Shown: one piece after another, positions 1 to 3,000 of the stretch
Numbering within the stretch: the first letter of the stretch is position 1
Layout: each line of letters starts with the position of its first letter
Source of the DNA: an uncultured delta proteobacterium
GTDB lineage: Bacteria > Myxococcota_A > Polyangia > Polyangiales > B10-G4
Length of the DNA stretch: 64,000 nt
Assembly: GCA_963727445.1 (NCBI GenBank)
Contig: CAVSGI010000009.1
Span: 32,001-96,000 of the forward strand
Direction: 5' to 3'
Program-made: the position numbers

Positions 1-3000
1 AACCCACGACATTCAGTTTCCGACAGGTCACTCCGCTGGCGGAACACGTCCACCGGATACACGACGAAGACGAAGCCCATCGTGCACGGCGACGCACCGG
101 CATGATGCCTCTTGCCAGGCGATGTGGTGCAAACGGGAGGATTCGAACCTCCACTGAGCCGGGTCTGAGCCGACCGCCTCTGCCGAGTTGGGCTACGTTT
201 GCGAAATTCGGATGGACGGTACCGACGCGCGATCGACGGAGCGCCGTGCGCCGGGGAGCGTCGTGAGCGCGCCGCTCTCCGGAGCGTCGAGGGCGGAGAG
301 GAGCGCGTTCAGCGCCACCATGGTCCGCATGAGGAAGGGCATGAAGTAGGGCAGCTTGAATCGCTCCATCAAGAGCTGCTTCTTCATGGTGCCGGCCGCG
401 TCCACAATCTCGCGTACGCGCTCCGAGCCGATCGCTTCGCCCCGAATCACCCCGCCGATGGCGATCCACTGCACCTCGGCGATCGCCTCGGCCGCGCGCC
501 GATTGCCGATCTCGAGCGCGGCGTCCACGGCGCGGACGAAGCGCTCGCGGTCCGACGCGAGCGCGGCATCCCGCAAGTCGCCGAACGCCTCTCGCTGAGC
601 GTCGTCGAAACGAAAGACGCTCCCGAAGTCGAGCACGCCTACCGTGCCGTCCTCCCGAAAGAAGAAGTTGCCGGCGTGGGCGTCAGCGTAGAGCACGCCG
701 TGGTCGGCCAACGCCGACAGGACGACCCGGCGCACGGCGGCGGCCTGATTTCGCCGCACGTCCGCGTCGAAGGCCCGCGCGTGATCGACGGTCACCCCGT
801 CCAGGAAGGTCGTCGACAAGACGCGGGCGCTCGAGACGTCGAGGGCGACCGCGGGGATCTCCAGATCCGGATCGCCCTCGATGAGCGCGGCGAAGGTCGC
901 CATGTTGTCGGCTTCGCGCTCGTAATCGAGCTCGGCCAGAAAGCCCGACTGGATTCGGCCGATGAAGTCGCCGCTCTGTCCGCGCGGCATGAAGAACGCG
1001 GTGGCGACCTTCCCGATCGAGCCGACGTTCTCCATGTCGTGCTCGAAGGCTTCGCGAATGCCCGGGTGCTGCACCTTCACCGCGAGGTGTCGTCCGTCGT
1101 GGTGCTCGGCGTCGTGGACCTGACCGAGCGAGGCGCTGGCAAAGGGCTGGCGGTCGAAACGCGCGAAGACCTCTTCGGGCGGTGCGCCCGAGATCCTCCT
1201 CCACGAGCGCGGCGATCGCGTCGTAAGGGGAGCGCGCCGCCTGGGCGCGGAGTCTGGCGAGGGCGGGTCCGACCTGCTGTTGGACCTCAGGGGGGAGATT
1301 CGCCTCGAGGAGGCCAGCCATCTGACCGACCTTGGTGCCGAGGCCGCGGAGCTCGCCGAGGCGATCGACCGCGCTCTCGAGGCCCTTGCCCGAGCCGGCG
1401 ACCATCGAGGCCGCCGTCCCGACGCCCGCGCGCGCCATCGAGGCGAGGCGCCCGAGACGACCGGTCTTCAGCTTCTTGGAATCCCCGCCGTCCCCCATGA
1501 CCGAAGGATTGTGCCAATCGGCGGCCGAGGGAAGTGGGAGCCGACGCGTCGGCTACGCCACGATTGGAGCCCCTGGGGGGAATCGAACCCTCCATTTCCG
1601 GTTTGAGAGACCGGCGTCCTCACCTGATTAGACGACAGAGACAGGAAGCGCCACGACCCGATACTGCTGGGCAGGGCGCAGACGAAACGGAGCGGTTGGG
1701 GGGAGTCGAACCCCCTTCGCGAAGATGGCCACCTCGTTACTCACCAGCGAGCAACCGCATGTGCCGGCCTGCTCAGGTGCCTAATCCGAGCTTCCGGCAG
1801 TGAGCGCGAGCTTTAGGAGGGAGCTCTCACTCACCGAAATCTGTCTGGCTGCCGGGATGCACTCCCGGCTCCGCGCTGCTGCGCTCCCGATCCCGCTGAC
1901 GCCGCTGCGCGGCTTTCGCGGGCTCGTACGCTCCGCAGCGCTCCGCCTTCTCCTAGACTGGCACGCCGCCGAGGAGTCGCACCTCGTCCCACGGGTTTGG
2001 AATCCGATCGGCTCTCCAGCCTGCGACGTATGGAGGAAGACGGAGGAAGACGGAGGAATCGAACCCCACACCCAGAGGTGCGCACTGTTTTCGAGACAGG
2101 CCTGACCGCCAGAGATCAGTTCGTCTTCCGAGATGGCGCCTTTGGCAGGACTCGAACCTGCAACCTCTCGCTCCGCAAGCGAACGCTCCTCCAGTCGAGC
2201 TGCAAAGGCGGATGGCGCCGCGTACGGGAATCGAACCCGTCTCGCCCGGGAGACAACCGGATCGCATCCCAGATGCGCAACGCGGCTCGGACAGTGAGTC
2301 GACCGTCTCGCCCCGTCAGAGACGAGCCGGTCGTTACTCAAACCATTTCACTGTTCCAGAAGAGCCAGCTCTTCCACGTCTGCGGGACGTCGGTGAGACG
2401 CACGTGGAAAGCCTCCATGGGAAGCCAGGTCGGCTTCGTCGGACGGCTCTTCAGGACCAGGCGCGCCTCCTTCGGAGTCTTCGCGCCCTTGTCGTGGTTG
2501 CACGGACCGCAAGCGGTCACGACGTTGTCCCACGTGGTCTTGCCGCCCCGCGAGCGCGGGATGACGTGGTCCATGGTCAGCTTCTTCGCCGGCAGCGTAT
2601 CGCCGCAGTACTGGCAGGTGAACTCGTCACGCACCATCACGTTGAAGCGCGAGAAGCGGATCGCCTGCTTGCGGCGGCTGATGCGGCGCACCAGGCGCAC
2701 GACAGCCGGCATGCGGATCGTGAGGCTCACCGAGCGGATCTCCTCGTCGTACTCCTCGACGACCTCGACCTTGCCCCCGAAGAGCATGGTGACGGCCTTC
2801 TGCCAGCTGACGATGCGGTGTGGTTGGTAGCCTTGGTCCAGTACAAGTGTACGCATGGCTGCTTCCTTACCTGCGCGACCTCGCAGAGGAGACGCGCCAT
2901 GGCTGTTGATGGATGTGGGTTTGGGTTGGTTAAGTATGGGTCCGCCGTCTGAAGACGCACGAACGGCCGAGAAAAGTCTGTGTGAATCACTTCTGGAGAT

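Follow-up and report, generated by a model that had tools for sequence, protein, structure and literature searches.

The gene at 125..202, on the minus strand of the 64,000-nt window analyzed here (a stretch of contig CAVSGI010000009.1 from an uncultured delta proteobacterium of the order Polyangiales), is a genuine and intact leucine tRNA gene that lacks the long extra arm. It is a member of the type I tRNALeu family, which is characterized by a short variable loop, and it closes the degraded remainder of a long tRNA array of the kind that has spread horizontally. We consider it probable that this intact type I tRNALeu at the end of its array remnant is leucylated and provides the cell with an extra decoder of CUG codons.

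ARAGORN and the sequence itself delimit a tRNA-Leu(CAG) of 78 nt, encoded CCA included, with a variable loop of 5 nt (UCAGU) and the discriminator A73, in agreement with the genome-wide survey's note in which the gene was first described. The Rfam tRNA model (RF00005) assigns 50.8 bits to 125..202, against a gathering score of 29 (E 5.5e-9). The acceptor, anticodon and T stems are fully paired (7/7, 5/5, and 5/5 pairs), the D stem comprises three pairs (G10-C12) plus C13.A22, and all 20 stem pairs are standard. The anticodon loop reads CUCAGAC, with A37 after G36, and the T loop reads UUCGAAU. The conserved tertiary positions U8, A14, G18 G19, U54 U55 C56, and A58 are retained, and A9 and A15 with U48 are likewise present. 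Class II tRNALeu is defined by a variable arm of more than 10 nt and the type I form by about 5 nt together with a leucine anticodon; the gene, hereafter short Leu-CAG, is of the latter kind. Furthermore, a covariance model (R1) trained on 47 short Leu genes taken from other genomes, the window's own gene excluded, returned short Leu-CAG as its top match over the whole genome (87.6 bits, E 2.3e-18); the next best tRNA reached 63.1 bits and the long Leu genes 44.8–53.5 bits. A promoter and terminator scan yielded no promoter-like and one terminator-like site, and shuffled sequences gave more. Ten public sequencing runs contain small shares of the window, and alignment of four of them recovered an 18-nt piece of the Leu gene and nothing more.

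The genome holds four genuine long tRNA-Leu genes, with the anticodons TAA, CAA, AAG, and CAG (86–90 nt by ARAGORN; 51.2–55.7 bits with Rfam). The survey's note had counted five other Leu genes of 86–90 nt, one of which, a GAG call at C10:258280, is a false positive without an Rfam tRNA match at E ≤ 1. As a housekeeping long Leu-CAG is among the four, the array-borne short Leu-CAG is supernumerary. The long Leu-CAG is 93–96% identical across four relatives; the best match of short Leu-CAG is 85% identical, and no match to it was found in a same-genus genome.

The short form had been reported from four genomes only, a figure that is exceeded within the order alone, where ARAGORN identified 50 short Leu genes of 73–78 nt in 28 of the 30 loci fetched from 28 genomes. 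Of 200 further genomes of the order, at least 27 have short Leu arrays confirmed by BLAST. All 50 array genes carry Leu anticodons (CAG 24, GAG 12, CAA 9, AAG 3, and TAG 2), and the Ser and Tyr genes in the short-Leu arrays of the order mostly keep the long arm. The fold of the family is under selection: among 48 distinct short Leu genes, pairing holds in 97.4% of 959 cells and double changes occur in 20/20 pairs, a degree of covariation that was equaled in 0/500 shuffles, while slid controls reached 37–46%. Between short Leu-CAG and its nearest relative (in genome G002), three pairs of the acceptor stem have changed on both sides with pairing preserved, which indicates that the structure stayed under selection as the two diverged. 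A tree of 161 short Leu genes (69 columns) gave no resolved topology and placed the window's own gene loosely with those of G002, G081, and G099.

Beyond the order, the D-arm pattern of the survey's note had retrieved a single further record, from Nostoc; a slightly wider pattern returned at least 120 loci. Among the matches listed, each of the 111 genes that have both the motif and a called anticodon is Leu (TAA 60, CAA 24, TAG 18, CAG 6, and GAG 3), and most of these genes lie in Actinomycetota, standing alone within the DNA stretch examined around each. The scan also revealed arrays related to the short-Leu arrays in other phyla, and a plasmid search with the window's gene produced a single record, an array on a Mycolicibacterium alvei plasmid. 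A type I Leu-CAA gene of Kutzneria, used as query, found no match in one Streptomyces sp. genome. The short-loop tRNALeu family is old and widespread, occurring on Actinomycetota chromosomes, in phages and in mobile arrays. The proposal that short Leu-CAG is a leucine tRNA which lost its arm in this lineage does not survive its membership of this family, and the note's interpretation holds only in part, since the short form does not represent a rare local loss of the arm. The accompanying premise of a long arm in every bacterial tRNA-Leu is at odds with the type I tRNALeu published for Streptomyces coelicolor (Fan, Huang, Ji and Wang, 2019, PMC6614811).

The short scaffold carries Leu anticodons of both codon families and no other anticodon (50/50 array genes and 111/111 motif genes listed), as would be expected only if the tRNA body specifies leucine. 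A73 is found in 49/50 array genes and in 111/111 motif-bearing genes among the matches listed, i.e., in 160/161, and U48, which is able to pair with A15, in 156/161 genes of the same set (50 array genes and 111 among the matches listed). G3:U70 was seen in none of the short Leu genes examined, and the base before position 1 of short Leu-CAG is C, hence it has no G-1. The D-arm had been regarded as leucine-type, a view which stands for certain traits (A15, non-paired 13.22 with A22, and the GGCAGA loop) and fails for overall identity, where the gene is equally close to class I: its D region agrees with ordinary class I D-arms at 16–17/21 positions versus 14–16/21 for the genome's long Leu genes. 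D-arm identity was consequently rejected as a Leu marker, as it fails to discriminate class I from long Leu.

According to the report on S. coelicolor, LeuRS ignores the anticodon, and ScoLeuRS leucylates the type I tRNALeu(CAA) in vitro, with the length of the 5-nt loop being of importance (PMC6614811). In the same study, this tRNA could not be charged by the LeuRS of E. coli or by one Streptomyces LeuRS (PMC6614811), so charging by any given LeuRS is not guaranteed. The genome studied here encodes a single LeuRS with a leucine-specific domain of about 43 residues, placed ahead of KMSKS, and an N-terminal insertion, both of which are shared by the two actinomycete LeuRS aligned (Streptomyces sp. 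and Kutzneria sp.). LeuRS types across the order were judged from the best E-values among the matches listed; the array holders include genomes with a split-matching LeuRS (G002, G004, G081, G088, and G099) and genomes with a contiguous one (G024, G035, G066, G067, G166, G136, and others). An exclusive link between LeuRS type and short Leu array was rejected, as the holders include both types. We infer that short Leu-CAG is charged with leucine, expressed and used in this organism. The genome is 85.6% complete, and its LeuRS gene and the ABC1-like gene described below are each read in two frames, probably due to indel errors.

The array to which short Leu-CAG belongs lies on the minus strand throughout. 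Its 5′ end is formed by a tRNA with a 6-nt anticodon loop (3199–3272; Rfam tRNA 56.1 bits) and Pro-CGG (3000–3076; Rfam tRNA 58.8 bits), followed by an HNH homing-endonuclease gene (2338..2856, likely start Met at 2856; Pfam HNH_5 7.9e-18, HNH 4e-15), Asp-GTC (2213–2286; Rfam 39.6 bits), Arg-GCG (2134–2209; Rfam 53.6 bits), Ser-CGA (2042–2129), Gly-GCC (1689–1758), and Glu-CTC (1565–1642; Rfam 50.6 bits), all tRNAs being ARAGORN calls. Two of these are aberrant: Gly-GCC has no Rfam match at E ≤ 1, and the 88-nt Ser-CGA, which has the long arm, has its best match in tRNA-Sec, whose gathering score of 47 it does not reach (38.8 bits). A 1.36-kb gene resembling ABC1 atypical kinases (193..1552; Pfam ABC1 4e-33 on 193–1080) parts short Leu-CAG from the rest of the array, and its stop codon falls inside positions 8–10 of the tRNA. 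Stop-to-stop frames divide this gene in two, with a shift near 1190, and a metagenome contig has one base fewer at 1187. The earlier description is supported in that the tRNA is of leucine type and arm-less, and in that the accessory array around it includes an HNH gene. HNH homologues were found by tblastn in 24/40 array loci, mostly directly beside a short Leu gene, and an RNA-library contig of 345 nt matches the HNH gene only (2429–2773). On the other side of short Leu-CAG, about 70–110 nt 3′ of it, lies a conserved, permuted tRNA-like element of the Y RNA-like, YrlA type, of which the window contains a part (1..54, minus strand); it continues past the window start, and the whole element spans about 31920–32054 in contig coordinates (G000:C9). 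Its Rfam YrlA score of 45.9 bits, over model positions 23–85, is below the gathering score of 69; its homologue in the sister genome displays compensatory changes, and both fold to the same junction. Y RNA-like genes are present in short-Leu arrays, too.

A tRNA array unit has been defined as at least 20 tRNA genes at a density of at least 2 per kb (Tran et al., 2015, PMC4758250). The local array, with 8 ARAGORN calls in 3148 bases (2.5 per kb), falls short of 20 genes, and many relatives have 10–18 per 3 kb; the low number and the two aberrant members identify it as a remnant. Two of the features by which L-arrays are recognized (PMC8421152) are present: an HNH gene is linked to the array, and the array genes are supernumerary, occur patchily among genomes and have spread horizontally. 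In the sister genome (G013), the HNH gene and the Pro region are kept at 76–81% identity beside the same ketosynthase gene; ARAGORN detected no tRNA in 9.5 kb of this locus, and nothing there matches positions 1–2350 of the window. The sister species has lost the tRNAs at the array locus, where no intact one is left.

If short Leu-CAG is in use, it would be transcribed together with the minus-strand array, and the ends of its transcript would be trimmed, the CCA being already encoded. The single LeuRS of the genome would then leucylate it without needing the arm, as with S. coelicolor, and the product would act as an extra CUG decoder, most plausibly upon array induction. The gene could instead be an intact but functionless relic of an array which an ancestor of the genus gained and which is now decaying, with this gene not yet mutated. 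Such decay would agree with the sister genome, where the HNH gene and the Pro region persist without a detectable tRNA, with the aberrant members of the local array, with the ABC1-like gene that cuts short Leu-CAG off from the others and with the housekeeping Leu-CAG by which CUG is already covered. Yet short Leu-CAG has no defect in its 20 pairs or conserved tertiary positions, heads the family-model scores and displays three compensating acceptor-stem changes relative to G002, all of which make a relic unlikely. Charging with a non-leucine amino acid, which would result in CUG mistranslation if loss of the arm opened the way to another synthetase, appears highly improbable. The leucine identity is a deduction, the D region resembles class I tRNAs of the ordinary kind no less than long Leu tRNAs, and two operonic Nostoc tRNAs (Phe and Ile) are reported to have aberrant acid-gel mobility (PMC8421152). 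Against mischarging stand a single scaffold that bears every Leu anticodon of the two codon families and none besides, the presence of A73, the absence of G3:U70 and G-1, and the leucylation of the S. coelicolor type I tRNA (PMC6614811).

A different function is suggested by the company that the array genes keep: short Leu genes in arrays might be mainly non-decoding or serve counter-defence, by evading nucleases or toxins that read the long arm or the normal anticodon loop, or they might mark an HNH homing site. In the majority of the order's arrays the HNH gene and a short Leu gene are direct neighbors, Y RNA-like genes occur within the same arrays, the same short form recurs in phage arrays, and tRNA array units have been termed a putative antidefence system (PMC12803027). 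The base following the anticodon points in the same direction, with A37 being enriched in array-borne Leu(NAG) genes (35/40); those standing alone or nearly so (n = 28) comprise 10 with A37 and 18 with G37, and array Pro genes, unlike array Leu(NAG), keep G37 in 23/24 cases. Canonical CUN-reading tRNALeu has G37, which is normally methylated, whereas short Leu-CAG has A37, a difference that may tell against its use as a CUG decoder. Conversely, the anticodon sets follow host composition (CAG and GAG in G+C-rich hosts versus TAA, TAG, GAG, and CAA in Nostoc), which fits decoding use, and operonic Nostoc tRNAs are charged and present in polysomes (PMC8421152), leaving a mainly non-decoding role quite unlikely. 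More speculatively, and in our estimation unlikely, the arm-less tRNALeu could be a mobile-element edition selected as usable when the long-armed tRNAs or the anticodon-loop modification of the host are attacked or limiting, and would form, together with the HNH and Y RNA-like genes, a transferable translation-rescue or counter-defence cassette, of which a decaying copy would be preserved here.

For this window the gene is of minor importance, as it adds one more example of a known short form: short-loop tRNALeu is widespread and has already been described, with members in actinobacteria, in phages and in mobile clusters of tRNA genes. Yet the wider picture is under-described, even though the arrays examined have this shape as a rule, as do several phage clusters and many Actinomycetota genes that lie alone in the stretch examined. 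The phrase “type I tRNALeu” and its variants occur in a single paper of the literature searched, and the short Leu shape is mentioned neither in the tRNA-array literature examined nor in the main text of the Nostoc study (PMC8421152). The family therefore bears on the textbook view that bacterial Leu tRNAs are class II, on annotation pipelines that judge isotype by shape, and on which lineages of LeuRS can accept substrates without the arm.

Among known systems, the type I tRNALeu(CAA) of S. coelicolor resembles short Leu-CAG in its 5-nt loop and in coexisting with long-armed Leu tRNAs and a single LeuRS. It differs in that its gene lies on the chromosome and resisted knockout (PMC6614811), whereas short Leu-CAG is supernumerary and part of a mobile array remnant; moreover, the anticodon here is CAG and the host a myxobacterium, and the likeness is drawn from the published description. 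Animal mitochondrial tRNALeu is likewise type I with A73 (PMC6614811), but is served by a dedicated mitochondrial LeuRS; ScoLeuRS is reported not to charge human mitochondrial tRNALeu(UUR) (PMC6614811), and no kinship by descent is suggested. Dense tRNA clusters of phages (Streptomyces phage Stella, Enterococcus phage phiSHEF16, and Mycobacterium prophage prophiGD54-2) contain annotated tRNA-Leu genes of 74–76 nt which are 77–83% identical to short Leu-CAG across the variable region, yet are phage-carried and have the anticodons TAG or CAA. In the trn operon of Nostoc/Anabaena sp. PCC 7120, as in the local array, the Leu genes are array-borne and near an HNH gene, whose product is 42% identical to the local HNH. 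All four of its Leu genes are short (75–78 nt), the CAA gene has the same D-arm motif as short Leu-CAG, and the long arm is retained in Ser-GCT (90 nt) and Tyr (87 nt). The Nostoc array is intact, with 24 ARAGORN calls in 2.2 kb, resides on plasmid pCC7120delta and is experimentally inducible (PMC8421152), whereas the local one is a chromosomal remnant with 8 calls. Santamaria-Gomez et al. (2021, PMC8421152) describe such L-arrays as normally silent and induced under translational stress. Northern probes in the PCC 7120 study included Leu(UAG) and Leu(UAA) (legend of supplementary figure 5G), in which 23 of the 26 operonic tRNAs were detected, aminoacylated in vivo and present in polysomes (PMC8421152); with four short Leu genes in the operon, at least one short Nostoc Leu tRNA must be charged.

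The tRNA-Leu(CAG) gene at window 125–202 (minus strand) is one more case of a known, widespread and little-discussed short tRNALeu, the type I form, in which a variable loop of about 5 nt replaces the long arm. The window covers G000:C9:32001–96000. The gene is the first of eight tRNA genes called by ARAGORN between window 125 and 3272, all on the minus strand, and the Rfam tRNA model matches 128–202 with 50.8 bits (gathering score 29). In the layout derived from the sequence, an acceptor stem of seven pairs is followed by U8 and A9, a D stem of three pairs with C13 opposite A22, A14 and A15, an anticodon stem of five pairs with the loop CUCAGAC, a variable loop of 5 nt (UCAGU) and a T stem of five pairs with the loop UUCGAAU; A73 and CCA are encoded in the gene. 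The genome-wide survey's note was therefore right that the long arm is absent. Against a covariance model of the short Leu family built from 47 foreign genes, with the window's own gene excluded, tRNA-Leu(CAG) scores 87.6 bits, which is 24.5 bits over the genome's next tRNA and more than 34 bits over its long Leu genes.

When the 78-nt gene was used as a BLAST query on 201 genomes of the order, 67 genomes gave matches at E ≤ 0.01, many of these matches limited to the T arm. ARAGORN, run on 30 loci chosen from these matches, called 54 Leu genes, 50 of them short (73–78 nt; anticodons CAG 24, GAG 12, CAA 9, AAG 3, TAG 2) and four long (84–89 nt). At least one short Leu gene is present in 28 of the 30 loci, corresponding to 28 genomes including the one studied here (the unpublished genome G122 is included in the order-wide tallies only), and the 27 of 200 other genomes represent a lower bound because the search depended on similarity to a single gene. 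Ser genes of the same loci measure 83–91 nt in 24 of 25 cases and Tyr genes 86–92 nt in all three. Ser-anticodon (CGA) calls without a long arm, which may be pseudogenes, occur in a Polyangiales array (L019 1377–1450, 74 nt) and in the Nostoc trn operon (L156 2430–2500, 71 nt). Another array contains an 89-nt long-armed Leu-CAG gene flanked by short Leu genes on both sides (L008 1400–1488); its anticodon loop, CUCAGAC, is the commonest loop among short Leu genes, which suggests exchange between long and short forms inside arrays.

The fold is conserved. Among the 50 array genes, U8 is invariant, A14 A15 and A73 are each found in 49, U48 in 48 and a variable loop of exactly 5 nt in 46. When the 48 distinct sequences are aligned, 97.4% of 959 cells show cloverleaf pairing and all 20 cloverleaf pairs have two-sided changes; none of 500 shuffles matches these values, and slid partners pair in only 37–46%. 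Four sequence points, ranging from anticodons to D-arm, argue that the short body is a leucine tRNA that would be charged accordingly. Its anticodons cover the two leucine codon families and nothing else, in 50 of 50 array genes and likewise in a wider D-arm scan. Almost all genes have A73, and A15 is able to pair with U48, a type of tertiary pair which the introduction of the Streptomyces study describes as an identity element of E. coli tRNALeu (PMC6614811). G3:U70 occurs in none of the short Leu genes, and the base preceding position 1 of tRNA-Leu(CAG) is C. The D region of this gene is identical to long Leu genes at 14–16 of 21 positions vs. 16–17 of 21 for ordinary class I tRNAs, and the "leucine-type D-arm" of the survey's note thus holds for a few traits, not for overall likeness. 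G37, an m1G site, is standard in canonical CUN-reading tRNALeu. Among the short Leu genes with NAG anticodons from loci L002–L154, A37 follows G36 in 35 of 40 array genes, while the 28 that stand alone or nearly alone divide into 18 with G37 and 10 with A37; in the arrays, G37 is retained by 23 of 24 Pro genes.

Elsewhere in the genome, ARAGORN lists five further Leu genes of 86–90 nt, as the survey's note had counted. With no hit to the Rfam tRNA model at E ≤ 1, the call at C10:258280 (GAG) was rejected, whereas the TAA, CAA, AAG and CAG genes score 51.2–55.7 bits, leaving four genuine long-armed genes, one of them CAG. The short gene is hence a supernumerary copy beside a long-armed CAG gene, and the latter is 93–96% identical in the same-genus sister G013 and in three other genomes (G002, G192, G163). 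The 85.6%-complete assembly yielded no Leu gene with a GAG or TAG anticodon. A34 is unusual in bacteria except in tRNA-Arg; the housekeeping tRNA-Leu AAG (G000:C10:319960–320045, minus strand) scores 55.7 bits on the Rfam tRNA model, and short Leu(AAG) genes are present in three arrays.

Beyond the order, a D-arm pattern scan of one genome per species matched at least 120 loci. Among the 120 listed, 108 hold tRNA genes that have both the motif and a called anticodon, 111 in all, each with a Leu anticodon and 73–78 nt long (TAA 60, CAA 24, TAG 18, CAG 6, GAG 3); one further locus gave an undetermined call and 11 no motif-bearing call. Most motif genes among the matches listed are the sole tRNA of the stretch examined and have Actinomycetota hosts (e.g., Nocardia, Amycolatopsis, Corynebacterium, Arthrobacter, Microbacterium, Gordonia), stand-alone status being weak for 40 loci with stretches of only about 620 bases. 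Array-borne examples come from Planctomycetota, Elusimicrobia, Myxococcus, Chloroflexi and cyanobacteria. Phage records gave 14 matches, including annotated tRNA-Leu genes of 74–76 nt within tRNA clusters, with Streptomyces phages, Enterococcus phages and a Mycobacterium prophage as carriers, and a Mycolicibacterium plasmid array adjoining an HNH gene combines two short Leu genes with a long one. With this spread through 28 genomes of the order, at least 120 loci matching the D-arm pattern and phages, the short form is not rare, contrary to what had been proposed, and the gene belongs to an established kind rather than having lost its arm here.

In transcription order, the local array opens with a tRNA whose anticodon loop has 6 nt (3199–3272) and with Pro-CGG. 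The gene for the HNH endonuclease (Pfam, 7.9e-18) comes next, then tRNAs for Asp, Arg, Ser, Gly and Glu, an ABC1 kinase-like gene that spans two reading frames (193–1552), Leu-CAG and a permuted tRNA-like element; all of these lie on the minus strand. The stop codon of the kinase-like gene falls within the tRNA-Leu(CAG) gene. Of the 40 array loci searched, 24 contain a homologue of the HNH protein; in most arrays of the order it follows a short Leu gene immediately on the 3' side, an adjacency broken here. Gaps between the two go down to 11–40 nt (L002–L028, L081, L092), and this conserved junction hints that a homing site may lie in or near the Leu gene. Ordinary chromosomal genes flank the array. 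The sister genome G013 retains the HNH gene and Pro region (76–81% identity) adjoining the same ketosynthase gene, with no tRNA called by ARAGORN in 9.5 kb and no match to window 1–2350. Remnant and context together indicate an old acquisition of the lineage that is now eroding and of which the Leu gene is, judged by its sequence, one of the still perfect members.

The permuted element (G000:C9 ~31920–32054, i.e., window 1–54 and about 80 preceding bases) follows the Leu gene closely on the 3' side and comprises a T arm, a closed acceptor-like hairpin, a D arm and a closing stem. It matches Rfam YrlA (Y RNA-like) with 45.9 bits, under the gathering score of 69. Its homologue in the sister genome shows compensatory changes, and both sequences fold to the same junction. 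Arrays of four further genomes contain full-length matches to the model, with 52–68 bits (L009 62–194 and 556–674; L010 2276–2391; L006 580–701 and 2683–2812; L003 2975–3065). The 85.6%-complete genome yielded no Ro60 (TROVE) gene, and a literature search found no paper tying YrlA to tRNA arrays.

The genome has one LeuRS gene (C10:1203587–1206338, minus strand), which is also read in two frames. This reading, the frameshift in the kinase-like gene and a related metagenome contig with one base fewer at window 1187 suggest indel errors, and the two-frame readings of both genes are probably assembly artifacts rather than signs of real pseudogenes. The tRNA at 3199–3272, with the anticodon loop AUGUAA, scores 56.1 bits with the Rfam tRNA model; its short loop is either genuine or due to a base lost in assembly, and other probable indels are present in this assembly. 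Ahead of KMSKS, the LeuRS carries a domain of about 43 residues; like both aligned actinomycete enzymes (Streptomyces sp., Kutzneria sp.), it also has an N-terminal insertion. Short-Leu arrays were found in genomes of either LeuRS architecture. Myxococcus sp. Y35, whose array L081 carries a short Leu-GAG, has two full-length LeuRS genes (C1:7552043–7554502 and C1:51273–53750), and the one aligned is without the leucine-specific domain seen in the G000 enzyme.

Searching the literature for "type I tRNALeu" and variants returned only the Streptomyces study. In S. coelicolor, one tRNALeu(CAA) of type I exists alongside long-armed tRNALeu, and both forms are leucylated by the only LeuRS of the species; charging of the type I form depends on the 5-nt loop length and requires the leucine-specific domain of LeuRS, neither E. 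coli LeuRS nor one other Streptomyces LeuRS charges it, and deletion of its gene was not achieved (PMC6614811). L-arrays are described as horizontally spread with a conserved HNH homing endonuclease, and of the 26 tRNAs of the Nostoc/Anabaena PCC 7120 operon, 23 could be detected, were aminoacylated in vivo and were present in polysomes (PMC8421152). The main text of that study is silent on both Leu and the variable arm; probes for Leu(UAG) and Leu(UAA) are listed in the legend to supplementary figure 5G. ARAGORN calls four Leu genes of 75, 78, 75 and 78 nt in this pCC7120delta operon, beside Ser-GCT (90 nt) and Tyr (87 nt). As at most three operon genes are pseudogenes and four short Leu genes are present, one or more of the short Leu tRNAs must be charged in vivo.
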